Positions 3,606-42,485 of a DNA stretch of 64,000 nucleotides are shown here, in pieces. Every line of letters begins with the position of its first letter. Within the stretch, counting starts at the first letter, position 1. Under the pieces are notes generated by a model. That model did not search any database and was not told the DNA's origin. It saw only the letters and a list, made by a program, of their open reading frames with translations. Origin of the DNA: a virus. The DNA lies in the IMG/VR virus record IMGVR_UViG_3300025687_000029, positions 1-64,000 of that record; one strand, written 5' to 3'. A program made the position numbers and the translations under genes.

Positions 3606-3901
3606 TATCTATATATTACTAGACCTGTAGCTGTTGTTCCACTATTAAAAACTTTAGTAATTCTTATTGGTAACCATGATCCATCTGGTATATTGGTAAG
3701 AGTTACTTCTCCACAATTCATTCCTTGAATAGCAATATTACCTCCAGTACCAACAAAGACACCAAATCCTTTAGCATCTTCATAATCATTTGATGATACA
3801 TCAATCTCTTCAAATGCAGATCCTTGATAGATCACATCATTATTATATGAGTCTACAGTTCCAACTCTTTTTGTACTTACATTCTCTTCTTTTAATGCCA
3901 T
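3605..3901 (-). CDS. Spike/fibre base protein resembling the RcGTA Rcc01079 head-spike base
   Basis: Motif VFVGTGGNIAI...IPDGSWLPIRITKVFNSGTTATGLV; 98 aa; directly upstream of fibre genes. Confidence 0.6.
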   Translation of the reverse strand: MALKEENVSTKRVGTVDSYNNDVIYQGSAFEEIDVSSNDYEDAKGFGVFVGTGGNIAIQGMNCGEVTLTNIPDGSWLPIRITKVFNSGTTATGLVIYR

Positions 3902-3907
3902 AATATT

Positions 3908-4540
3908 TTATTTTTTTAAACCACCTTGTAAATGAAGATAGTGATTAAATACATTATATGTTAATCCATTATCTTCTATATAATTTGCCAGAGTTATCTC
4001 TTCTACATGCCAAAGTGCATCAAAATCAACTTCTCTAATAAATGAATTTTTTATCTTATTTAATACCTGATCTGCATACTCAATAGCTTTATTTGGATCT
4101 TTAAATCCTTCTAAACCTGTACAAGGAATACCGGGTAATTTGTCAATTGGTTTTAAATTATATTCTTTTAAATATTTACCAAATATACCTGATCTAAATC
4201 TTTCTAAATATATATCTTCTTGAAGTGATTCCAATTTATCATATAGAACTGCATCAGGATCTACCATTATAAATGGCTCTGTTTGTAGTTTATATACTTG
4301 CAATTTACCTATTGAATAGTACCTATCATCAATATTTTCAAAATCTATTACTTCTATATTAACAGGAAGAACGTCTTTAATAACTTCATATCCTACAGAA
4401 TCAGTATAAATAGTTACATCATAATTTTCGTTATGAATAGCAGTAGTTTTTTTCCAAAAATCTAATAAAGATCTTTTAGTTGGAAAACCACACTTTATGT
4501 TATCTCCTTCAAAAGTATTATATATTTGTATTAATTTCAT
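3908..4540 (-). CDS. Putative GT-A glycosyltransferase-like protein (DUF6734-like)
   Basis: VTIYTD...GKLQVY...EPFIMVDPD (DxD motif). Confidence 0.5.
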   Translation of the reverse strand: MKLIQIYNTFEGDNIKCGFPTKRSLLDFWKKTTAIHNENYDVTIYTDSVGYEVIKDVLPVNIEVIDFENIDDRYYSIGKLQVYKLQTEPFIMVDPDAVLYDKLESLQEDIYLERFRSGIFGKYLKEYNLKPIDKLPGIPCTGLEGFKDPNKAIEYADQVLNKIKNSFIREVDFDALWHVEEITLANYIEDNGLTYNVFNHYLHLQGGLKK

Positions 4541-6201
4541 ACTAAGTCATCTTTTATTTTAGTACCTCTTAAAGTTATTATTCTTTCATAATCTCCTTGA
4601 TCTGAGCCTGTAGTATTATCTTCCCCTGTACTTCCACAAGAAGAAAAAAATTGAAAAGTTATATCTTTATCTGATAAATCTATCATTCTAGTTCCACTTA
4701 CTTGAGTATAATCAGGGGAAAAGTCAGTTTGATTTGTTTCATACAAATACTGACCCTTTTCTCCAGAATAAGTTAATACTGAAGATTTTAATTGAAAACT
4801 CTCTCCATAAAAATGATTTATCCTCCAAGATAACCACTGAGTTCCTAAACCAGCAATAGGTACAAATCCATCTATACTATTTGTAACAGTACTATTATAT
4901 AAAAATGTAATATCTTTATCACCAAAAGCTGACGAAGAATCAACTGATATATCAGGCCCACCCCCACTATCTGTTACAACGACACTCGATATAGTCTTTA
5001 AATTAGACCTGTTTACAATTTGTAGAGAATCACTTGCATATATAACACCCTGACAATCTACAGAACTACTTGATAATCCAATCTCCAATTGTTCAAATAC
5101 TTCTGACCAGTTCTCACTAGCTGTAGTATTAACTAAGTCAGCTCCTACTACTGCTATGGAACTAATAGTAAAAGTACCATCAGTTATTCTTAAATATCCT
5201 GTATCTTCAGTATTATATTCAGTTGTACATTTCTCTGATAATCCTGCTTTTATTTCTTTTAAAACCATTTCCCAAGTATCACCTGAGCCATTTGTAGTGT
5301 AAGAGGATGTCTCTGTATTACCATTATCATAAGTAATTGTAACACTGTACAATGTAGATCCTGTAGGAGAAGCTACACTACCATTAACTCTCACACTGGC
5401 AGCATCAGTAGTATAATCAACTACATCAGTACTTGCATCATTATATGTAATAGTTAATTCATATTTTTGCCCTGCATCAGGATATGATTCACTAGGGGTT
5501 ATGTTATATATTGTTCCTGGATACCATAAAAAATATGCTTCAATACTATCTAATCTACCGTATCTTTGTAATGAAGGTTTATAATTTATAAGTAAAGAAT
5601 CATAAGAATTATTACTATAATTTTCTCGTACTACTGAATCAATTCCAACTAATGCAAGAGCATCTTTTATTTCAGTTAATATGTCAACAGTTGTGTATGT
5701 AGGATCATTTGGAATATCAATATTAACTACTCTATCTATAGAACCTGTTATCAACGTTGGATAATCCTGAATTAAAAATCTAAGTGTTAATTGGGTATTA
5801 TATGGAAAAATCTTTATATTTTTATTTATTCTCAAATAACAATTAAAATAAAATCCACCAGGCTCAGTTACTACCACATCTAACATATTATCAAAATATA
5901 ACTGAGCATTTTCTTGTTCAAAAAGAGTTATGGTATAATCTCTATCACAAGATACTTTATATTTAATTTTAATATCAAATTCTCCATTAGGATACTCCGT
6001 TTTATACATTGTATAGTCATCAGTAACCTCAGTAGTACAAATATTATCACACTCCCCAACACCAACTCCGGCAGCATTTAAATATTCTAATACAGGTGCG
6101 CGATGATACTGTAATCCTGATATTTCACCTTTCTTCCTCCATATTCCTATTTCATCGGAAGGATGATAATCTTCTCTTCTTTGTGCTGGATATTGTGACA
6201 T
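4537..6201 (-). CDS. Structural (tail/fibre) protein with a nested repeated domain
   Basis: S/T-rich beta protein in the structural block; internal repeat Y.(L/V)TITY...YTT. Confidence 0.55.
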   Translation of the reverse strand: MSQYPAQRREDYHPSDEIGIWRKKGEISGLQYHRAPVLEYLNAAGVGVGECDNICTTEVTDDYTMYKTEYPNGEFDIKIKYKVSCDRDYTITLFEQENAQLYFDNMLDVVVTEPGGFYFNCYLRINKNIKIFPYNTQLTLRFLIQDYPTLITGSIDRVVNIDIPNDPTYTTVDILTEIKDALALVGIDSVVRENYSNNSYDSLLINYKPSLQRYGRLDSIEAYFLWYPGTIYNITPSESYPDAGQKYELTITYNDASTDVVDYTTDAASVRVNGSVASPTGSTLYSVTITYDNGNTETSSYTTNGSGDTWEMVLKEIKAGLSEKCTTEYNTEDTGYLRITDGTFTISSIAVVGADLVNTTASENWSEVFEQLEIGLSSSSVDCQGVIYASDSLQIVNRSNLKTISSVVVTDSGGGPDISVDSSSAFGDKDITFLYNSTVTNSIDGFVPIAGLGTQWLSWRINHFYGESFQLKSSVLTYSGEKGQYLYETNQTDFSPDYTQVSGTRMIDLSDKDITFQFFSSCGSTGEDNTTGSDQGDYERIITLRGTKIKDDLV

Positions 6202-33700: not shown

Positions 33701-36700
33701 ATGAATGTATTTTATTCAATGATATTACTAACACCTAAGCAATTTATTGATAAGTTTAAAATTTATGATACAATTGTTTTAGGTGCATTAAATGAAACTA
33801 ATGTAAAAGGGCTAAGTAATGATTTTTACGTAGATAAAGTCTTACCTAAAGTTAGAGAATCAATACCTAATTTAAGTATTGCTGCGAAGCCAATTACTAA
33901 AGACAGAACCCTATGGCTTATCTCTACTAAAAATTTAGATAAAGAGAATATAAAACAATTAAATATAGTATTAACTAAAATTTAAAGGAGTTATGAAACT
34001 TAAATATTACAGAGGAAATATTCTTCCTCCAGAAGATGACAATCTTCCTAAATATTGGGCAGTTGTTAATGACAATTCTGAATTATATATTAATGTTGTG
34101 GTTGGTTATGTGAATAAATATTATGGGGGAGGACATTCTGCATTAAAACCAGAAAATTATTGCAAATTTCATGGAAGATTAGATGATTATGGATGCACTA
34201 ATGGAAGTCATATGAATTATATGAAATCTGAGTTAAAAATTTTATCCATAGAAGAATTCATAAAACTTACCCAACCACAAGTTGATTTTGAGATGTTGAA
34301 AGGAACGTTACAACATTTAAGACATGATCTACAATATATGATGGTAGAAGATAAATGTATTGATAATGTTGAACTATTCTTCCACCTATTATCAACTAAA
34401 CCAACATTTGCAGCTAAAGCACATGAGGAGTTAAAACGATTAAACAAATAACTATGAAAAGATATACAGTAATAAATAACAAAACAGGTTATAAAAGCAA
34501 TTATAGTTACTTTATGTGGAATTTAGCTTGGAGTTTGGTGTTTATATTTGGAGTATTAACAGGTATATTTATATCTTAAATAAATAACTATGGAACTAGA
34601 ATTAGTAGACTTTTCTTTAGCCCAGGAGCTAAAAGAAGTTGGGTTTAAGGAATTATGCTTTTATTATTATGAAGATGAAAAACTAAAAGAACCTTATTTA
34701 GAAAATGGAAGCTCAACAGATACAGACTTTAGAGTTGATTTGGAAGACTTGCGAGACAATTACAATTATTTGTCTTATAGATGTAACGCTCCGTATCTCG
34801 AAGAAGCTAAAATGTGGTTTAGGGAAGTACATGAGATTGATATATGTATTAATCCACACTATAAAACTAACAACGACATAGCAGGATTTATGGTAGATGT
34901 TTACATTAGAAAAGTAAAATACAACTCACATAAATACGGTGATGCTAAAGATACCTACAACCAAGCTCTATCATCAGGATTAAAGGAGGCGTGTAAACTA
35001 ATTAAGAACCAATTAAGATGAAAGCAAATAAAACATATCAGGAAAAAGTTGATGATTATGTTAAACAACAAGTAGAATTAGCTAAAGAAAATGACGTTAC
35101 TGGTATAATTGTGATAGACCACTCACATATTATCTCAGATAAAGACAAAGAAGAGTTAATTAAACTAAGTGAATTAATTAAAACTGATTAAGATGAAAGC
35201 AAAAGTAATAATGTTGGATAGTAAAACGAGTACTATCCACAAACATCAAAAAGAATTAAAAATTACAAAGTTTGAATTAGAAGAAACTGATTTTTTTATA
35301 CCCCAATATTTATATCTAACCAACCCAAATGCTAAAATTGAAGTTGGAGATTATTTTATTAAAGATAAAATGGTTTGTCAATGTAATGAAACTACTCAGA
35401 ATGAGTTAGGCTGTATTCCCGACAATGAAGTATATTGTAATACTCAAACTTATTTTGATAGAAGAAATTGTGTTAAAATAATAGCAACTACTAATTCTTC
35501 TTTAAGAATATTATTTGAAGGTCAAGAAGTATTAGAAGAACCTTATCCATTATCAGAACAATCAATCAAATTATTAGTAGATTACTACAATAGAAAAGGT
35601 AAAATGCCTGATGAGGTTGAGGTTAATTTTGAATACATAAATAAACCAATGAGTGACTTATTTTTAGACAAAACTATAAAACTAAACTCCAAAGGAGAAG
35701 TAGATATTATTATTCCTGAAGAAAAGATGTATAGTAGGGAAGAGGTTGAAACTTTGCTTACTAATATGGGTATTGATGCATTATTGCCTGAAGAAGAAGT
35801 TGATGAATGGATTAATGAAAACTTATAAAAACCTAAGAGTAGGTAACTTTTGAATTTTGGAAATAAGGAGAGTTGTGCGACTCTCCTTTTTAATTTTAAA
35901 ACTATGAAAAAACTATCACTAAAAGATCTAGAGCTGGAATTATTAGCTATTGCTTTACCGGGGACTAAAGTAAATGTGCTGTATTACAGTTCTATATTAG
36001 ATAAAAGAGAAATTATCTATTTAAACTAACAATTATGAGAAAAGTATTATTATTGACTATTATCATTCTAGGAATGATTAGTTGTGACAAAGAGGAACTA
36101 GTACCAATAAAAGAAACTACAACTAGAGACTCATTAATAAATGAGCTTGTAGATTTAAATACAATTTATACAGGAAGAAGTAAGTACAAATATACAATTA
36201 GATTAACAGAACAATGGTCAGATACTTCAGGATTACTTGTAGTAAAAAGATATGGACCTATAACTGTTAAGGAATATAGAGGATATTTTGATGAAGATTT
36301 AAGATTTATAGAATTATATAAAAATCAAGATACAATACTTCAAATAAATAAATTTACTGTTGATACATTATATTTAACATATTATCCAGATATAAATTTA
36401 ACAAAATTATGGAAGTAATTATAGGAATAGGAATATTAGTTTTTGCAATGATTTTAAGTTATCTGGTAGGAATTAGATTAACTAAAATTGAAGATAATGG
36501 AGACACAGAAGCTTAAAGAACAACAAGATAAGATTCATAGTATAATGTTACAATTTTCTAAGGAAGATAAGACTTCGGAGATTGATGTTATACTTATGAA
36601 TCTTATTACAATCTCAAAAGAAATTAACAATTTAATCAATAAATCAATAGTAGGAGATATTGAAGATCATTGAGAAAAGATAGAGTAGATTAAACTCATC

Positions 36701-37142
36701 GAAGTATAATGACAATTCTAATACTATTAACAATTAAATCAATATTAATAATTATTAAATTTTAGAAATTATGAAAACACAAGTAGCAGTAACAGTTAGA
36801 GATTTTGTAAATGGTGAAGTAGATAAAAATGGTAAAAGCCCTGTATTATTATATGTATTGGGTGGAAAATGTCCTAATAGAAATGTATTATCAGGTACAT
36901 TTGCTGAAAATGAAGGATTTGAAATAGGTAAATCTTATTTAGTTCAAGTAACAGAAAGAGAAGAAGATCCTACTTATGGTAGACAGTTTCAATTTACTAA
37001 AATAGGTGAATTGAATACTCTGGACCTTATTGGAATAGCGGATAAGCTTGGAGAACCTACAATGATAGATGTAACTGTTAAAGCTGAAATATCTGCTCCT
37101 GCTGATATTAAAGCAAAGACAACATCTGATGATGTACTTTAA
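33701..37142 (+). other. Early hypothetical gene block, including a probable lipoprotein at 36035-36418
   Basis: Co-oriented ORFs; 36035 has signal peptide MRKVLLLTIIILGMIS-C (lipobox). Confidence 0.6.
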
Positions 37143-37152
37143 ATAAAACAAT

Positions 37153-37179
37153 TAAGAGGAGTTTAATACTCCTCTTTTT
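37153..37179 (+). terminator. Intrinsic terminator
   Basis: AAGAGGAGT-ttaat-ACTCCTCTT-TTT. Confidence 0.8.
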
Positions 37180-37209
37180 CACAAATATTTACTAAATTTG
37201 TGACATTTT

Positions 37210-37295
37210 GGTCCAGAAGTTCATATGGTAGAATGTTGCCGGGTATACGTTAAATAATTATGGCAGAGGTATAGGTTCAAATCCTATCTGGACTA
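37210..37295 (+). tRNA. tRNA-like RNA (Asp-like scaffold) with an enlarged anticodon loop
   Basis: GGTCCAG/CTGGACT acceptor, GTTC/GAAT D stem, TTGCC/GGCAG stem with a 21-nt loop, ATAGG-TTCAAAT-CCTAT T arm. Confidence 0.65.
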
Positions 37296-37576
37296 CTAAA
37301 AATCACTCATTTTGATTTTCATAATAATGGTTTATATAAGTTTTGATTGATGAGTTGCAGTATAGGTAGGTTTGAGTGAGCCTACCTTTTAATAGAAATT
37401 TAGCGAACTGTGATGAAACATTTTAGCAAACTGATTGCTAACGATGGGTACATGAAGCGTATGAGGCACGAATATGATTTATGTACCGTATTAGGTGTCT
37501 GTATTTATTTTTTTAAGGGAGGGTTGTTTTATTGGAATGTTATTTGTTTGTTTGTTACAAATTAAAATATATAGCA

Positions 37577-37780
37577 ATGGGAAGAAAAATAGGTTCAATA
37601 GAAGCATTTGCGCTTCAAAACTTAAAACAAGGACAGTTTTTTTATACGCATAAACAAGACAAAGATATGACTGCAATTGCAGGATATTATAAAGTTAAAA
37701 TAACAACCGAGAGAATGGTTGCTATTGATACTACAAGGCACGAAAGAATAGAATTTATAACTAAAGTAACAATACTATGA
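37577..37780 (+). CDS. Cassette A gene 1, hypothetical
   Basis: MGRKIGSIEAF...; coupled to the next ORF (ATGA). Confidence 0.6.
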   Translation: MGRKIGSIEAFALQNLKQGQFFYTHKQDKDMTAIAGYYKVKITTERMVAIDTTRHERIEFITKVTIL

Positions 37781-37962
37781 AAGATTTTAATTTTAACATC
37801 AGACTATTTTGTATATGGAGATGTTTTATGGCTTGTCAGTTTGAATTTACGATACTAAGCATAACAATTGGTGAAACCGAAAGGAGTTTATTGTCTTATT
37901 TTAAAGACGATAGTAACAAAATACTCGACGTCTGTTTTTTTAGAGTGCGGTGGCAAAAATAA
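37777..37962 (+). CDS. Cassette A gene 2, hypothetical
   Basis: Stop lies 5 nt before GCACCTAAC. Confidence 0.55.
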   Translation: MKDFNFNIRLFCIWRCFMACQFEFTILSITIGETERSLLSYFKDDSNKILDVCFFRVRWQK

Positions 37963-38000
37963 ATATTGCACCTAACGTTTATAAATAATATTAGTAGCGT

Positions 38001-38312
38001 ATGAAAAGAGATAAATATACAATAACCGACTATCTTCGATATGGTAGAAACCTTGCAAATTTGCTGTGGTGGAAGCTATTAATTTTATTTGGTATTAGGC
38101 GTAGTGCTTCACCAATACCAGAAGGAGTGTACTGTTACGAACCTGATTATGTAGACACAAAAACATTTACATATTACGTAAAGCCATGTAAATACTACAA
38201 AAACTTAGGGTACGGATGGAATGGATGTAGTTATTTAGGTGTGATTACGGATGATTTTGTATTTAATGACCAATGCAAACTATGTAATGAGAATTATTGC
38301 AATATACACTAA
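38001..38312 (+). CDS. Cys-rich protein spanning a cassette junction
   Basis: Starts inside attC-like site 2; IPEGVYCY...PCKYY...DQCKLC. Confidence 0.65.
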   Translation: MKRDKYTITDYLRYGRNLANLLWWKLLILFGIRRSASPIPEGVYCYEPDYVDTKTFTYYVKPCKYYKNLGYGWNGCSYLGVITDDFVFNDQCKLCNENYCNIH

Positions 38313-38381
38313 CGGAATTACGCCTAACGGTTGGGGTATGGCATGTAATTTTACGAATTTGAAACACAAAATTATAATACG

Positions 38382-38609
38382 ATGGAAAAAATAAAAGAAA
38401 TAGTTGCAGATTTAATGGAATGTTATGATGGAACAGGAACACCAAACCAACATTACATAAAGAACAAAGTTACCGAGTTGCACAACATAGTTAAAAATAT
38501 TAATTATGACACTGTGTTAGCACCTGTTATTTGTGATTGGTGCGAAAAAGACATTACAAACAAAAGTAAAATTTGTGCAGATTGTGCAGATAGAATGAAT
38601 GAGCATTAA
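38382..38609 (+). CDS. Zn-finger protein spanning a cassette junction
   Basis: Starts inside attC-like site 3; CDWC...CADC follows the junction. Confidence 0.65.
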   Translation: MEKIKEIVADLMECYDGTGTPNQHYIKNKVTELHNIVKNINYDTVLAPVICDWCEKDITNKSKICADCADRMNEH

Positions 38610-38845
38610 TGGTTGCTAACTATTATATATTAATAATATCAATAAAATAAATACTTATACTATGATAGGAATAATAATTTTTTCAATTATATTTACAATA
38701 ATCGCTGTATTTATAATTTATGATCTAACTGTTTTTATTAAATATAAAGGCAAGAAAACACTACTAATAGGACCCTTCCTATTCTATATTTGTTTAGAGT
38801 TAATAATAACTTTAGTATTAATAGATTTAATGAAAAATTTATGAA

Positions 38846-40057
38846 ATGAAAAAGAAAGTAGAAGATTTAGATTATCCTGATGTAGTCCATTGTAGGAGTA
38901 AGGAAGAATCTGATTTAATAAATAAGTATAATAAGAATGGAGTTTATGATTGGACTGAAAGAGAACCTTATTTGTTATTAGGTAAAGCAGGACATAGTAA
39001 CAGTTCTTATGGTAGAAACTACAATAATTATGATTTCTCAGATATAATATTTCCAGAATCTAAAGAAAAAGCAGTTCACTGTACTACTCAGGAAGAATGG
39101 GATTTTGTATTAGATGTAATTAAAAATCCTTTGTGTTGTAGCAATGATTGGGATGTATATTCTGAAAACTCTATTTTATATATGAATGATGGGTCCAGAT
39201 CTAATACTGATTGGGTTAATCAACATAGTAATAAATTTAAATTGTTAACCTTCTCCCAATGGCTTAAAGAATCAGGTAATGAAGAGAAGTGGGTAGAAAT
39301 AACTAAATCTGAAGAACCTAAACCTAAATTTAAAGTTGGAGACTGGGTAGTACAAAGACAGTCTCAATACTATAATTTTATTGATAATATTACTCAAATA
39401 GTTAAAATAAAAAATGACCAGATTTGGGTAAGACAAAAAAGCGGTGTGGGAGGGGTTCTTGGTTTAAACCGATTTTGTGATGTTTTTAGAGAAGCAACCC
39501 AAAAAGAAATAGATTCTGTTACTAAATCCAAACTATCAGAATTAGATCAATGGATTGAGGATAATAAGGATTTTGAAGGGAGTTTTGAAGAATTTTTAAA
39601 ACAATTTAATGACAGTGATAGTTATAGTTTAATATCATATGAATTATGGTATAAAGTTCCTGGAGATTGGAGTAAAGAAAAAGCCCAATATATTTGGAAT
39701 AAATGGGGTAGGAGTAAAGGTATTGAGGAACAACTGAAGAGTGGTAAAAAATTAACTTTTGCTAAACCTGATGTTCTAGATATTCGGGAAACACTAGGAT
39801 TGCCAGAATTTGATGCTAAATTTCCTTCAAAGCAAGATAAATATCTAGAAGACAATCAAGAATCTATATGTAAATATTGTGAAGATCATATAATTGAAGG
39901 TTGTAGCATAACTTCTACTTTTCAATGTGAAGGTAGTTTTTGTGTACAAGCTACAGAATCTTGGTTAGAAGATAATCCTTTACCAAAACCTCAAGAAACA
40001 ACTATTGTAGATAAATCTGTTTATTTTCCTAAAACAGATGAAAATGAAATTTATTAA
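38846..40057 (+). CDS. Modular hypothetical protein
   Basis: Repeated VHC(R/T)..EE.D modules and a KFKVGDWV module. Confidence 0.6.
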   Translation: MKKKVEDLDYPDVVHCRSKEESDLINKYNKNGVYDWTEREPYLLLGKAGHSNSSYGRNYNNYDFSDIIFPESKEKAVHCTTQEEWDFVLDVIKNPLCCSNDWDVYSENSILYMNDGSRSNTDWVNQHSNKFKLLTFSQWLKESGNEEKWVEITKSEEPKPKFKVGDWVVQRQSQYYNFIDNITQIVKIKNDQIWVRQKSGVGGVLGLNRFCDVFREATQKEIDSVTKSKLSELDQWIEDNKDFEGSFEEFLKQFNDSDSYSLISYELWYKVPGDWSKEKAQYIWNKWGRSKGIEEQLKSGKKLTFAKPDVLDIRETLGLPEFDAKFPSKQDKYLEDNQESICKYCEDHIIEGCSITSTFQCEGSFCVQATESWLEDNPLPKPQETTIVDKSVYFPKTDENEIY

Positions 40058-40090
40058 TAACTAGTTATAAACAATTAAAATTAAATTAAA

Positions 40091-40519
40091 ATGACAAAAG
40101 TATCATTTGTACAAAGAGTACTAAGTTTTATTAAAACTGATGATGAGTCAGCAGTAAAAAGCACTCAAAAGCAAGCTTTAAAGATTTGGAGTAAAGAAGT
40201 TAGTCTTGCTGAAAGAGCTATTAGTAGGCTTAAACAAGATTTAGCTGAAGAAGTTGAGTCTAAAGAAGAGTATATTGCTGAAGCTAAAGAACAACTTGCT
40301 AATTCCTATCTTAATATTGATGTTGAGGCAGTTAAAACTGTAGACGATAGAAAGGATTATGTTGAAAATGTATATCAACAACAAATAGCAAATGCTAAAG
40401 CTAAAGTTGAAAGCTTGGAAAAAGAACTTTCTGATCTTAAAGATGAAGTAAATGCTAAAATTGAAAGAAAAGAAAAAGCAATTGCTATGTATAAAGAGAA
40501 TATTGAAGCAATTTCATAG
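40091..40519 (+). CDS. Coiled-coil protein
   Basis: Heptad-rich; followed by terminator GAGGGG-tgaaaat-CCCCTC-TTT. Confidence 0.6.
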   Translation: MTKVSFVQRVLSFIKTDDESAVKSTQKQALKIWSKEVSLAERAISRLKQDLAEEVESKEEYIAEAKEQLANSYLNIDVEAVKTVDDRKDYVENVYQQQIANAKAKVESLEKELSDLKDEVNAKIERKEKAIAMYKENIEAIS

Positions 40520-40565
40520 TTTTAAGTTTTAATATGAGGGGTGAAAATCCCCTCTTTTTTTAATT

Positions 40566-42485
40566 ATGAAGAAAATATATGTATATGATATTGAAACATA
40601 TCTTCATTGTTTTTTAGCAGTTTATTATGAAATATATTCCAAAGAAACCAGAATATTTGAGTTATCTAAAAATAAGAATGATTTAGAAGAACTAAAAAAC
40701 TTTCTGTATAGTAATAGTGATGAATATTTTGTTGGATATAATAATATTGAATTTGATTATCCTGTAATCCATGATATACTTTTAGGTCATTCTAATACAA
40801 CTGAAGAAATATTTAGTAAAGCCCAAATAGTAATAGATACTGAAGTTAAATGGCAAATAACTATTCCTGAATGGAAAACTGTAGGTAAGCAAATAGATCT
40901 CTTTAAAATTAATCATTTTGATAATGATGCTAAAAGAACTAGCTTGAAAGCTTTAGAAATTGCAATGAAAATGAATAATGTAGAAGATCTACCTTATGAT
41001 ATTGAACAACCTCTAAATGAATCTCAAATAAAAGAATTAACTGATTATTGTATTCATGATGTAAGAGCTACAGCTTTATTCTTTTTTAAGAATCAAAATG
41101 AAATTAAACTAAGATTAAATTTATCAAAAGAATATAATCTTAATCTTCTTAATCATAATGATCCTAAAATAGGTGAAGCTATTTTTATGAAATTTTTATG
41201 TGAAGAATTAGATAAACCAAGAAAATACTTTGTTGAGAATAATACTAAAAGACCTTATGTAGATCTTAAAGATTGTATTCTTGACTATATTACATTTGAA
41301 AACAAATCATTTAATGTATTACTTGATTGGTTAAAAGAGCAAAGAGTTTATCAAACCAAAGGGTTTTTTACAGAGATTCAACATAAAAAACTACATACTT
41401 TATTACCATATATGAATAAGAAGCAGAAGAATGGTAATATAGCTAAATTAAACATAATTTATGATGAAGTTCAGTATGATTTTGGTACTGGGGGATTACA
41501 TGCTTGTATTGATTCTGGGATTTATAAAGAAGATGATGACTTAACTATTATTGACTTAGATGTTGCCAGTTACTATCCAAATTTAGCAATTGTTAATGAC
41601 TTTTACCCAGAACATTTATCAAAGACTTTTTGTAAAATCTATAAAAATATTTATGACAAAAGAAAAGCTATTCCTAAATCTGATAGTAGAAATTATGGAT
41701 TAAAGATAGCACTTAATGGTTGTTTTGGTAAAGCTGGAGAAAGTAATTCACCATTCTTTGATATTAAATTTCTTTTATCAATTACTTTAAATGGTCAATT
41801 ATTACTTCTAAAGCTTGTTGATATGTTATATTCTCAATTAGATATTAAAATACTTCAAGCAAATACAGACGGTATTACATTTAAAGTTAAAAGATCTGAT
41901 GTAAATAAAGTTCAACAGATTAGAAAAGAATGGGAAGATTTGACCAATTTAGAATTGGAAGATGCTGTATACAAACAAATGATAATCAGGGATGTAAATA
42001 ATTATATTGCTGAATATCAAGATACTAAGATCAAACTCAAGGGTATTTTTGAAATAGAAAAAGCTTGGCATAAAAATCATTCTATGTTAGTTATTCCAAT
42101 TGCTTTGAAAGAATATTTCATTAATGATATTCCTATTGAAACTACAATTAAGAATCATAAAGATGTATATGATTTCTGTCTTAGAGAAAAGTTTAATAAA
42201 GGTTTCCAAGGAGAATTTCATTCAATAGATGGTCAAGATATTAAAATAGAGACTACTCAAAAGAATGTAAGATATTTAATATCAAATTCAGGTAAATATT
42301 TCTATAAAAGAAAACTTGAAACTGATACATTAAGTGTTGTAAATAAGAATACAAGATCTATTGAGATGAATAGAATACCAAAAGAATATAATATTGAAGA
42401 TTATGATATTAATTATCATTGGTATATCAAAGAAGCTTACAAAATTAAAAACACAATAGAAGATGGACAATTAAAATTATTTTAA
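40566..42485 (+). CDS. DNA polymerase family B
   Basis: Exonuclease motifs YDIET, GYNNIEFD, YCIHDV; polymerase motifs DLDVASYYPN, KIALNGCFGK, QANTDG. Confidence 0.9.
   Translation: MKKIYVYDIETYLHCFLAVYYEIYSKETRIFELSKNKNDLEELKNFLYSNSDEYFVGYNNIEFDYPVIHDILLGHSNTTEEIFSKAQIVIDTEVKWQITIPEWKTVGKQIDLFKINHFDNDAKRTSLKALEIAMKMNNVEDLPYDIEQPLNESQIKELTDYCIHDVRATALFFFKNQNEIKLRLNLSKEYNLNLLNHNDPKIGEAIFMKFLCEELDKPRKYFVENNTKRPYVDLKDCILDYITFENKSFNVLLDWLKEQRVYQTKGFFTEIQHKKLHTLLPYMNKKQKNGNIAKLNIIYDEVQYDFGTGGLHACIDSGIYKEDDDLTIIDLDVASYYPNLAIVNDFYPEHLSKTFCKIYKNIYDKRKAIPKSDSRNYGLKIALNGCFGKAGESNSPFFDIKFLLSITLNGQLLLLKLVDMLYSQLDIKILQANTDGITFKVKRSDVNKVQQIRKEWEDLTNLELEDAVYKQMIIRDVNNYIAEYQDTKIKLKGIFEIEKAWHKNHSMLVIPIALKEYFINDIPIETTIKNHKDVYDFCLREKFNKGFQGEFHSIDGQDIKIETTQKNVRYLISNSGKYFYKRKLETDTLSVVNKNTRSIEMNRIPKEYNIEDYDINYHWYIKEAYKIKNTIEDGQLKLF

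Follow-up and report, generated by a model that had tools for sequence, protein, structure and literature searches.

A freshwater crAss-like phage with a probable relic of an integron-type cassette array

A 1.2-kb block of foreign DNA (positions 37442-38620) lies in the genome (95,666 nt) of a freshwater crAss-like phage. We consider it probable that the block is a horizontally acquired, partly decayed three-cassette fragment of an integron-type array; because no integrase accompanies it, it would represent a CALIN. Judged with the covariance models R1 and R2, which were built in this analysis, it is probably a degenerate phage-borne CALIN of an attC variant from Bacteroidota. Coordinates refer to the window, i.e. 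the whole stretch of 64,000 nucleotides that was analysed. A sequence-only reading of this DNA had already proposed an integrase-less, integron-type array in a crAss-like phage, and this core is upheld: the major capsid protein is 27-30% identical to capsid proteins of Crassvirales, a PF00589 search of the phage's own genome found no tyrosine recombinase, and the sites have attC-type architecture.

The composition of the block is foreign. Its CpG observed/expected ratio is 1.09 versus 0.22 in the backbone (30 CpGs where 5.9 would be expected at the backbone ratio; Poisson P 1.8e-12), which bears out the CpG richness noticed earlier, and no stretch of the 95,666-nt genome is richer. The first CpG within the block lies at 37442 and the last one at 38543. 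Phage loci bearing similar sites have ratios of 0.7-1.2 and crAss-like relatives 0.10-0.26; the block resembles the former, not the latter. The 8-bp direct repeat reported to bound it, TTGCTAAC, occurs on the plus strand only twice genome-wide, precisely at the two block ends (37435 and 38613). For the flanking 403-aa gene, the relatives found share just 36% identity and are not syntenic, too distant for comparing the locus. A megablast search with 35000-41000 retrieved nothing from GenBank phages. The organisation of the block is as follows (a slash within a box marks the presumed crossover point).

37423-37442, plus strand: left junction, a small hairpin TTAGCAA-ACTGA-TTGCTAA ending in box 1 (TTGCTAA/C, 37435-37442), with the TTGCTAAC repeat and the first in-block CpG
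37435-37497, plus strand: site A, compact and attC-like (box 1, spacer GATG, L stem, 9-nt loop, spacer GT, R' ATTAGGTG)
37442-37975, plus strand: cassette A, site A with ORF1 (37577-37780) and ORF2 (37777-37962), from AA/C to AA/C
37962-38108, plus strand: site B, attC-like and better preserved than A and C (box 2 ATTGCACCTAAC, ending at 37976, then spacer, L'', loop, L', spacer GGT, R' ATTAGGCGTAGTGCT)
37976-38327, plus strand: cassette B, ORF3 (38001-38312), ending in box 3 AATTACGCCTAAC (38316-38328)
38314-38530, plus strand: site C, eroded (box 3, conserved leader GGTTGGGGTATGGCATGTAATTTTACG, loop with ATG at 38382, decayed L', R' GTTAGCA at 38516)
38328-38619, plus strand: cassette C, ORF4 (38382-38609), ending in box 4 TTGCTAA/C (38613-38620), which is the right backbone junction

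All strings on which the sequence-only reading was built are in place: TTAGCAA (37423) and TTGCTAAC (37435), TTAGGTG (37491) and CACCTAAC (37969), TTAGGCGTA (38095) and TACGCCTAAC (38319), GTTAGCA (38516) and TGCTAAC (38614). Boxes 2-4 had been described as lying a few nucleotides past stop codons, and the distances from the stops of ORF2, ORF3 and ORF4 are indeed 6, 6 and 4 nt. The four boxes TGCTAAC, ACCTAAC, GCCTAAC and TGCTAAC all fit ..YTAAC, and the cassettes are complementary to their own boxes over 7, 9 and 7 nt. The R' core is GTTAGCA at site C, ATTAGGT at site A and ATTAGGC at site B; as had been pointed out, the latter two read ATT rather than GTT, with a G>A change at 37490 and 38094, respectively, and the spacers, which are of 5-6 and 2-3 nt in the site family, differ from those of canonical attC. 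The inner palindromes exist as well. At site A, the 16-nt arms of the L stem (37447-37462 and 37472-37487) are 81% complementary. At site B, the L'' and L' arms (37983-37998 and 38075-38090) form 14 Watson-Crick pairs out of 16, one G.T and one mismatch around a loop that contains the ATG at 38001 plus 24 codons, and the R pair of cassette B (38094-38108 with 38314-38328) retains nine contiguous pairs plus a G.T. The third palindrome is degenerate, as claimed. With the L''/L' stem, short unpaired spacers and a variable loop present at both A and B, the architecture R''-spacer-L''-loop-L'-spacer-R' is supported.

Taken alone, the window does not rise above chance. There are 21 inverted pairs anchored by GTT...AAC genome-wide versus 13.5 in shuffles, none of the block's own pairs (repeats of 7-9 nt) reaches the threshold, and the intervals from a box to its inverted copy fold no better than shuffles (z = -1.66 and +0.46). 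These unremarkable statistics would suit an ordinary moron-like insertion with short inverted repeats produced by chance, as would ORF1, whose homologues in seven other phage contigs (42-55% identity) have no such sites. The significance of the sites rests on comparison across genomes, because it comes from covariation and covariance models. A custom covariance model had been advised by the sequence-only reading; R2, trained on five sites that all lie beside unrelated genes and so independent of this block, finds site B (37966-38108) with 41.5 bits and E 3e-6, its sole significant match in the window and in the 95.7-kb genome, and R1 gives 78 bits (E 5e-15) for the same site. CALINs require at least two co-oriented sites within a few kb; among the three co-oriented sites here only B is significant. 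Site A, the second-best R2 match in the local scan, scores 16.4 bits with filters off (E 0.028 for a 2-kb search) and aligns over its full length; site C scores 19.1 bits with R1 (E 0.12), and its leader aligns with positions 3885-3950 of locus L013, where the site is intact. Moreover, the same boxes stand beside ORF3 homologues in more than 10 unrelated contigs, and the TTGCTAAC repeat is confined to the block ends. A chance origin is thus already contradicted by the boxes at ORF3 loci, the covariation and the R2 match, and we regard it as the least probable of all readings, very close to dismissal. Of the expectation that homologues elsewhere would be flanked by boxes, the part concerning ORF3 stood and the part concerning ORF1 did not. 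An Rfam scan returned a tRNA as its only match; Rfam contains no attC family.

What the block preserves in part is found in full in other phage loci. In these intact relatives, a box ..ATTnnnnnnYTAAC closes each cassette at the stop codon or shortly past it, and a folded site opens the next cassette. The box is followed by 5-6 nt and an L stem of 15-21 bp that includes invariant G.T pairs; the loop of this stem contains the start codon and the first 10-50 codons of the next gene. After a further 2-3 nt stands GTTRnnnnnnAGT, whose GTTR arm pairs over 13-15 nt with the box that ends its own cassette. Compensatory changes are present, so the per-cassette complementarity seen earlier in the block extends to many other phage loci. 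The cores are GCCTAAC with GTTAGGC, and also GCATAAC with GTTATGC, which departs from YYY. Loci with ORF3 homologues in unrelated phage contigs share the same boxes and a covarying two-stem site with an R core GTTR.... Distinct composite sites number six in L008 (eight overlapping calls), five in L013 (six calls, one of them an R pair), four in L022 and three in L011 (four overlapping calls); they are strand-specific and absent from shuffles. L013 has 18 GTT..AAC pairs versus 1.3 in shuffles. Over 213 kb of loci, R2 identified 36 sites, 35 of them on the gene strand. Five crAss-like relatives, the seven loci with ORF1 homologues and 50 kb of phage phi14:2 yielded none.

The L stem of the cassette-B site, compared over nine copies, has 98.6% of its positions paired, with two-sided changes at four pairs and a G.U that is invariant in 9/9. 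RNAalifold on 17 sites, 13 of which lie beside genes other than ORF3, recovered the R core and the L stem, with compensatory changes in 17/23 pairs and the G.U again invariant (17/17). The stems are mostly bulge-free; in place of extrahelical bases they carry invariant G.T mismatches at fixed positions (17/17 sites). Terminal inverted repeats of MITE-like elements or invertons were considered as another identity for the GTT..AAC pairs and rejected, because the arms differ between units yet stay complementary and a second, nested stem completes the attC layout. We conclude that other Bacteroidota phages, and Bacteroidota chromosomes too, commonly carry the cassette system in intact form; such phages therefore appear to trade small early genes as cassettes.

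The two stems could instead be RNA elements for mRNA stability, processing or translation control, the first made of the 5' leader with N-terminal codons and the second of the N-terminal region with the 3' end of the cistron, while the boxes would serve as short homology for ordinary homologous or illegitimate recombination, like the PeSL motifs of T4-like phages. At all sites the fixed mismatches take the form G.U on the strand that is transcribed, the start codon sits inside the L loop, sites are co-oriented with genes in 35/36 cases in phage loci, and PeSL-mediated shuffling is an established precedent (PMC2839356, PMC4122927). Nevertheless, the cores match the integron R-box consensus (GCCTAAC and GTTAGGC), 80-nt units devoid of a gene exist (L013:2307-2387 and 5406-5487), and both stems would melt under translation. 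In each of the two stems, the G.T marks are some 11-12 nt distant from the central spacer, a placement that suits a protein dimer on a pseudo-duplex. In the Winogradskyella chromosome described below, the sites are antisense to genes, so that no G.U fold would form in those mRNAs, and a Xer/IntI-like recombinase adjoins them. We hold the RNA explanation to be unlikely, though it is the strongest competitor to an integron-type array.

The sequence-only reading placed cassette starts at the TTAG.. motifs (38095, 38517) of an active array, which means that ORFs would span the crossover and halves of proteins would be reshuffled. ORFs do start inside the site loops; at one pair of loci homology ends immediately after R' GTTA (L007:1366-1430 versus L014 and L016); and the metagenome contig L039 contains ORF3 only up to codon 23, with unrelated DNA beyond. 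However, homology between genomes breaks at the box, CTAA/C. Loci L007, L021 and L022, which are of high identity, share a segment bounded by ..AAC boxes at both ends, L014 and L016 provide a further case of box-bounded sharing, and the segment shared by L008 and L011 has its 5' end at the box (the L011 locus stops before the 3' box). Similarly, the match of the window to ORF3-type loci ends immediately after ...CCTAAC. The L'' arm, loop and L' arm accompany the body of the downstream gene, whereas the upstream gene varies, and the supposed start TTAGGCGTA falls within conserved codons (G-I/V-R-R-S) of a conserved 100-aa protein. N- and C-terminal parts occur together in 19/19 ORF3 homologues, the frame in L039 simply ends (LW, then stop), which indicates truncation, the R' sites of the window read ATT, and in both arrays that bear a recombinase the side on which it lies makes the box the crossover. 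Borders at TTAG.. had to be abandoned, and the probability we leave to that version is slight, below that of the RNA elements. One cassette therefore consists of a gene and the hairpin holding its start codon; whole genes move, and chimeric proteins do not arise.

Candidate enzymes come from related arrays. R2 detects arrays in genomes of Winogradskyella and Saprospiraceae. The chromosome of Winogradskyella thalassocola DSM 15363 encodes a recombinase recognised by NF040815, 'tyrosine recombinase/integron integrase', with 234 bits (cut-off 220), and after it follow at least five R2 sites, four of them directly past a gene's stop codon. The sites there are antisense to genes, and in the array of a Saprospiraceae MAG genes and sites occupy the same strand; gene orientation is therefore not a fixed rule. 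The phage contig G001 (IMGVR_UViG_3300042257_000210) carries about 14 cassettes, and its array ends 50 nt before a recombinase homologous to that of Winogradskyella (32% identical, E 2e-36), with XerA and IntI4 as the best solved relatives. The two recombinase-bearing arrays agree in polarity: the box end of each site points away from the enzyme, as R' does in integrons. The two enzymes score 74 and 193 bits on TIGR02249 (cut-off 265) and appear to be without the IntI-specific insert. When the G001 recombinase was used as a query in IMG/VR, its sole match was itself. A recombinase linked to such sites, which the sequence-only reading suggested looking for, is seen beside the arrays of G001 and Winogradskyella and not in the phage's own genome. 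Integrase gp034 of phage phi46:3 was also considered as the cognate enzyme and rejected, because its type differs (SAM_5, 428 aa) and there is no box next to it.

We suggest the following mechanism. The plus strand, which is the gene strand, would fold when single-stranded; on this strand the fixed mismatches are G.T, on the other one they would be C.A. The fold may mimic a double-stranded core site with two recombinase-binding arms, and a tyrosine recombinase of the Xer/IntI clade would cut AA/C in the box. Whole genes with their own site at the 5' end would then leave as circles and insert elsewhere, which would put genes on the recombining strand, the opposite of classical cassettes. The block probably arrived in a single event that used a GTT-type secondary site, ...GATTGCTAA/CTATTATAT..., and the left junction (37423-37442) is presumably the backbone target or such a secondary site. 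The donor would be a CpG-normal array of a Bacteroidota phage or host, and, the crAss-like phage having no enzyme, this would have come from a co-infecting phage or from the host. A single insertion would imply an empty site ...GATTGCTAAC/TATTATAT... in relatives.

Since entry, the sites have probably been eroding. The copies in the block are eroded: R' reads ATT twice and the R stems have shortened to 7-9 bp, versus 13-15 bp in intact relatives. Present recombination in trans, another element of the sequence-only reading, is not supported: besides this erosion, the third site scores only 19 bits, and the block is unchanged (0 differences) in contigs from three other samples. Neither the empty site nor the circle junction that had been anticipated, nor other joints, was seen in contigs from 4 runs, which cannot show rare forms, and the predicted empty-site junction was absent from IMG/VR.

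Several traits are shared with integron cassettes, attC sites and CALINs. The order R''(..YAAC)-spacer-L''-variable loop-L'-spacer-R'(GTTR..) is the same, structure is kept rather than sequence, a cassette begins with bases that can pair with the distal R box of that same cassette, arrays are co-oriented, the R box beside AAC/GTT is where junctions lie, and the defining trait of CALINs, no integrase nearby, is shared by the block. Compared to canonical attC, the R pairing per cassette comprises 13-15 bp in intact relatives instead of about 7, fixed G.T mismatches replace bulged extrahelical bases, the spacers are unlike, and the loops of 50-190 nt hold a start codon and N-terminal codons. Unlike in classical cassettes, the folding strand of the phage arrays is also the gene strand and the site occupies the 5' end of the gene, and unlike in a complete integron, the recombinases beside related arrays are Xer-like and under the IntI model cut-off. 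Xer enzymes are known from comparable systems: the CTX phage uses a folded single-stranded attP, the pdif modules of Acinetobacter plasmids are Xer-dependent with double-stranded sites, and both employ a dif-like 11-6-11 sequence. Xer-clade recombinases acting on short sites that bound gene modules are common to those systems and ours, but no dif-like sequence is seen here. Morons of tailed phages are also small blocks of foreign composition between a terminator and backbone genes, but they are defined by their own promoter and terminator and not by structured recombination sites.

Integrons are regarded as bacterial devices, and phage-borne attC clusters, seemingly rare, were first reported in 2023 by Qi et al. 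(Front Microbiol, PMC9892861), with 17 CALINs in 10,705 phage genomes; Cellulophaga or crAss-like phages are not named in that survey. Those CALINs are likewise phage-borne, integrase-less and from Bacteroidota hosts, whereas the arrays of the present analysis are long, reaching about 14 cassettes, and one of them is accompanied by a recombinase of its own. P12002L_attC1 of a Polaribacter phage shares the layout described here (TGCTAAC-GGCTA-stem-AT-GTTAGGCG) and was the only site that failed to recombine with IntI1 (PMC9892861). PeSL of T4-like phages resemble our sites in that conserved structured motifs flank small early genes in plastic regions and modules are swapped between phages at these motifs. 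They are, however, compact local stem-loops of conserved sequence, acting as promoter and terminator, shuffled by homologous recombination (PMC2839356, PMC4122927), while our sites vary in sequence with covariation, pair over long range within each cassette and have cores that match integron R boxes. No conserved-sequence local stem-loop overlapping a promoter was found, and promoter-like sites are not enriched (18 versus 19 in shuffles).

Through this locus, an attC variant of distinct structure came to light that abounds in phages and chromosomes of Bacteroidota. Its hallmarks are R stems that are long and specific to each cassette, G.T mismatches at fixed positions, gene starts within the site and, next to two related arrays, Xer-like recombinases. 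If the sites recombine, this would explain the exchange of small early genes between unrelated phages, crAss-like ones included, and the sites would provide an intermediate, open to testing, between Xer and IntI in the recombination of folded single strands. The exchanged genes are likely host-takeover or counter-defence factors. More tentatively, and with somewhat less than even confidence, we propose that Bacteroidota phages run an integron-like platform of their own, with up to about 14 'inverted' cassettes, a site that doubles as 5' leader and first codons, and a Xer-type recombinase without the IntI insert that reads G.T mismatches instead of flipped-out bases; G001 would be its complete example and the crAss-like block a captured fragment. 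Were this true, cassettes would cross between unrelated phage lineages and host chromosomes. For the crAss-like phage itself, the block is a relic, of practical value as a marker of past transfer.

The four small genes are today probably ordinary accessory early genes. The closest homologues are P0001 (88%), P0021 (91%) and P0028 (94%). ORF1 has homologues at 52-91% identity. ORF3 encodes a conserved Cys-rich protein of about 100 aa with 19 full-length homologues (52-88% identity); a metagenome scan with it found no near-identical relative. Cassette B occurs in differing contexts with junctions at the R box, which ORF1 of cassette A does not, and of cassette C only the leader is shared with L013. 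Searched by tblastn, GenBank phages contained nothing that matched ORF1, ORF2 or ORF4, the Protein Atlas returned viral hypothetical clusters only (below 0.8), and Pfam and PHROGs were uninformative for the four genes and their neighbours, with a weak zinc-ribbon in ORF4 as the sole match; this protein has a CxxC...CxxC motif at its C-terminus.

Two further features precede the block.

37210-37295, plus strand: tRNA-like gene with an anticodon loop of 21 nt (Rfam tRNA, 46.6 bits, E 4e-8)
37364-37390, plus strand: terminator-like hairpin AGGTAGG...CCTACCT followed by a T run, read from the sequence, between the tRNA-like gene and the block

ARAGORN makes no call for the tRNA-like gene, and as an exact pattern it has no match in IMG/VR. 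It stands immediately upstream of the block and belongs to its context, outside the array.

The phage that carries the block (37442-38620) can be placed, by its protein sequences, among distant crAss-like phages. Its IMG/VR record (95,666 nt, completeness 94%) encodes portal, terminase, DNA polymerase, helicase, primase and a major capsid protein 27-30% identical to those of Cellulophaga phage phi14:2 and gut crAss-like phages; public sequencing runs containing the stretch are freshwater metagenomes. The composition of the block is foreign to this genome. As the sequence-only reading had observed, it is richer in CpG than the backbone (observed/expected 1.09 vs 0.22): it holds 30 CpG against 5.9 expected at the backbone ratio (P 1.8e-12) and represents the richest 1.2 kb of the whole genome. 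Its ratio is like that of site-bearing phages and unlike that of crAss-like relatives. Distant crAss-like relatives (L002-L006) have ratios of 0.10-0.26, near the backbone value; the backbone thus avoids CpG very strongly. The block and its upstream surroundings comprise:

36771-37142, + strand: 123-aa gene upstream of the block, followed by a terminator hairpin
37210-37295, + strand: tRNA-like gene (Rfam tRNA, 46.6 bits; anticodon loop of 21 nt)
between tRNA-like gene and ORF1, + strand: second hairpin with T run
37577-37780, + strand: ORF1
37777-37962, + strand: ORF2
38001-38312, + strand: ORF3
38382-38609, + strand: ORF4

The tRNA-like gene has intact acceptor, D and T arms and is flanked by two terminator-like hairpins; an ARAGORN run gave no call for it. 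The foreign block lies directly downstream of this gene and its hairpin.

All sequence strings on which that reading based an integron-like array are present where it placed them. Three CTAAC boxes indeed lie 4-6 nt past stop codons, and the + strand of the entire genome has just two copies of the 8-bp direct repeat at the block ends, TTGCTAAC (37435 and 38613). Inverted repeats in the block are 7-9 nt long, and matches of such length are common (115 inverted pairs within one 1.8-kb stretch). The genome shows no enrichment of GTT..AAC pairs (21, with 13.5 in shuffles), and the supposed attC intervals of the window fold no better than shuffles.

ORF3 is a member of a conserved family whose proteins are Cys-rich and ~100 aa long; it has 19 full-length homologues of 52-88% identity, and gp032 of Cellulophaga phage phi46:3 is in the same family. 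Because of this conservation, TTAGGCGTA, formerly taken for a cassette start, falls in conserved codons (G-I/V-R-R-S). We compared 16 viral loci with ORF3 homologues, which have no other gene in common with the window. In most of them the same box, approximately ATT[AG]CnC[CA]TAAC, stands on both sides of the homologue, once directly past its stop and once ~50 nt before its ATG. With a weight matrix derived from the boxes, the two ORF3-flanking copies are the only strong matches in the phage's own genome; in several loci the matrix reveals a regular series on the + strand.

The mapped loci display two nested stems. Firstly, each box pairs over 13-15 nt with a GTTR... sequence located 80-340 nt upstream. 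Inner bases of these R arms vary between units yet remain complementary (for example GTTATGCCCC/GGGGCATAAC, GTTAGGCGTAGTGC/GCATTACGCCTAAC, GTTGGGCGTAGTGC/GCATTACGCCCAAC), always with one G.T pair, at arm position 11; locus L013 contains 18 GTTR/box pairs vs 1.3 in shuffles. Secondly, an L stem of 15-21 bp sits between the box and the next GTTR, beginning 5-6 nt past the box and stopping 2-3 nt short of GTT. It also has fixed G.T pairs, and the next gene has its start codon in the loop. The layout R''-spacer-L''-loop-L'-spacer-R' is that of attC. A scanner for such composite sites yielded 6, 5, 4 and 3 distinct sites in loci L008, L013, L022 and L011 (8, 6, 4 and 4 raw calls, respectively) and 2-3 in L007 and L009, all on the gene strand; shuffles give essentially none. 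Across nine copies of the ORF3 site, L-stem pairing amounts to 98.6% and the G.U is invariant; four of the stem's pairs change on both sides despite one arm being coding. RNAalifold, given 17 sites (13 of them next to non-ORF3 genes), arrives at this structure on its own, with compensatory changes in 17/23 pairs and G.U invariant in 17/17.

A covariance model of these 17 sites (R1) matches the window at 37962-38108 (78 bits) and 38314-38530 (19 bits, E 0.12); a chance-level match (12.4 bits, E 4.1) falls on the strand opposite to the first site. Model R2, built from five sites all adjoining genes unrelated to ORF3, has its sole significant match in window and whole genome at 37966-38108 (41.5 bits, E 3e-6), followed by the compact site A (37432-37504; 16.4 bits, filters off). 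R2 detects 36 sites over 213 kb of loci, and 35 lie on the gene strand; it finds none in five crAss-like relatives, seven loci with ORF1 homologues and 50 kb of phi14:2.

Cassette borders had been proposed at the TTAG.. ends; homology between genomes instead breaks at the box. L007 and L022 have in common ~360 nt at 93% identity, from AAC to AAC; L007 and L021 match from box to box (95%); the L008/L011 segment (94%) starts at the 5' AAC and is cut at its 3' side by the end of the L011 locus. Neighbours of these segments differ both upstream and downstream, and L014 and L016 share another cassette bounded by boxes. Judging from such breakpoints, crossover would take place between AA and C of the box. 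As homology runs from box to box, the L'' arm, the ATG-holding loop and the L' arm move with the downstream gene; protein chimeras are not implied. Crossovers at this point divide the block as follows:

37442-37975: cassette A, with ORF1 and ORF2
37976-38327: cassette B, with ORF3
38328-38619: cassette C, with ORF4

The window's own site copies are eroded and the locus is a relic. Per-cassette R pairing spans 7, 9 and 7 nt vs 13-15 in intact relatives, R' reads ATT at 37490 and 38094, and site C has mostly lost its L stem, its leader being still alignable with an intact L013 site. The simplest history would be a single insertion at a GTT-type secondary site, between ...GATTGCTAA and CTATTATAT..., and subsequent decay. 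Contigs from three other samples that span both block ends show zero differences and no joints. CTAACGG occurs twice within 38301-38330, 15 nt apart (38309, 38324), the earlier copy overlapping the stop codon of ORF3, which suggests a partial duplication of box 3. The 37-nt leader past box 3 (38330-38366, GTTGGGGTATGGCATG...) recurs with 3 differences in further contigs from these freshwater samples, which are more abundant (depth 10-20) and have unrelated flanks. Metagenome contig L039 (2960-3075) carries a truncated cassette remnant: box, leader and the first 23 ORF3 codons, 87% identical to the window version, after which the frame stops and the DNA is unrelated.

ORF3 homologues are also present in two Bacteroidota genomes, where R2 finds 17 and 23 sites, many at contig ends. 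In Winogradskyella thalassocola a 375-aa recombinase precedes an array of at least 5 sites (L058:5239-10768, to contig end), four directly past a stop codon, antisense to genes. This protein scores 234 bits with NF040815 'tyrosine recombinase/integron integrase' (cut-off 220) and 193 bits, below the cut-off of 265, with TIGR02249. There is a second similar recombinase near another contig end (L059), at a distance of 1.7 kb. Short contigs carry many more Winogradskyella sites, as would follow if arrays interrupt the assembly. Phage contig IMGVR_UViG_3300042257_000210 (G001; L027:1-7808) contains ~14 consecutive cassettes with intact sites, ending 50 nt upstream of a Xer/IntI-like recombinase of 269 aa that is encoded on the same strand; past this gene, 8 kb are free of sites. 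XerA and IntI4 are the best solved relatives of the recombinase, and it is 32% identical to the Winogradskyella recombinase (E 2e-36). We regard G001 as a candidate for a complete, phage-borne platform resembling an integron.

Sites in the Winogradskyella and G001 arrays turn their box end away from the recombinase, the position that R' takes in integrons; this polarity agrees with breakpoints at boxes. It also puts phage-array genes on the strand folding with G.T, not C.A, and their orientation is the reverse of the classical integron one. A Saprospiraceae contig has genes and sites co-oriented, as in phage arrays; with the antisense Winogradskyella sites, this means that orientation varies.

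The proposal of a phage-borne array of integron-type cassettes lacking an integrase was right in kind and wrong in where it put the cassette borders; a search of the phage's own genome found no tyrosine recombinase. Qi et al. 2023 (PMC9892861) reported CALINs, clusters of attC sites without integrase, in 17 of 10,705 phage genomes; several of the sites proved to be substrates of IntI1. Polaribacter phage P12002L_attC1 has a layout equal to the sites found here and is the one site that failed with IntI1 (PMC9892861). That paper and its supplement name no crAss-like or Cellulophaga phages, and our literature search turned up no crAss-like phage reported to carry integron parts. Among analogues of a different kind, T4-type PeSL motifs come closest in function. 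The site family is of the integron type known before, the variant seen here is new, and the family revealed by the relic locus deserves an experimental test.

The dinucleotide TC is depleted in the block on the gene strand only (observed/expected 0.25, 11 TC in 1179 nt; GA 0.92; backbone TC 1.12). Phage arrays of the same site family (L027:1-6950, L008, L011) give 0.31-0.45, and TC is not depleted in the remaining G001 (0.91) or the Winogradskyella array (0.90). A nuclease specific for TC/UC, the codon bias of the donor, or deaminase pressure acting on the folding strand could account for this depletion.
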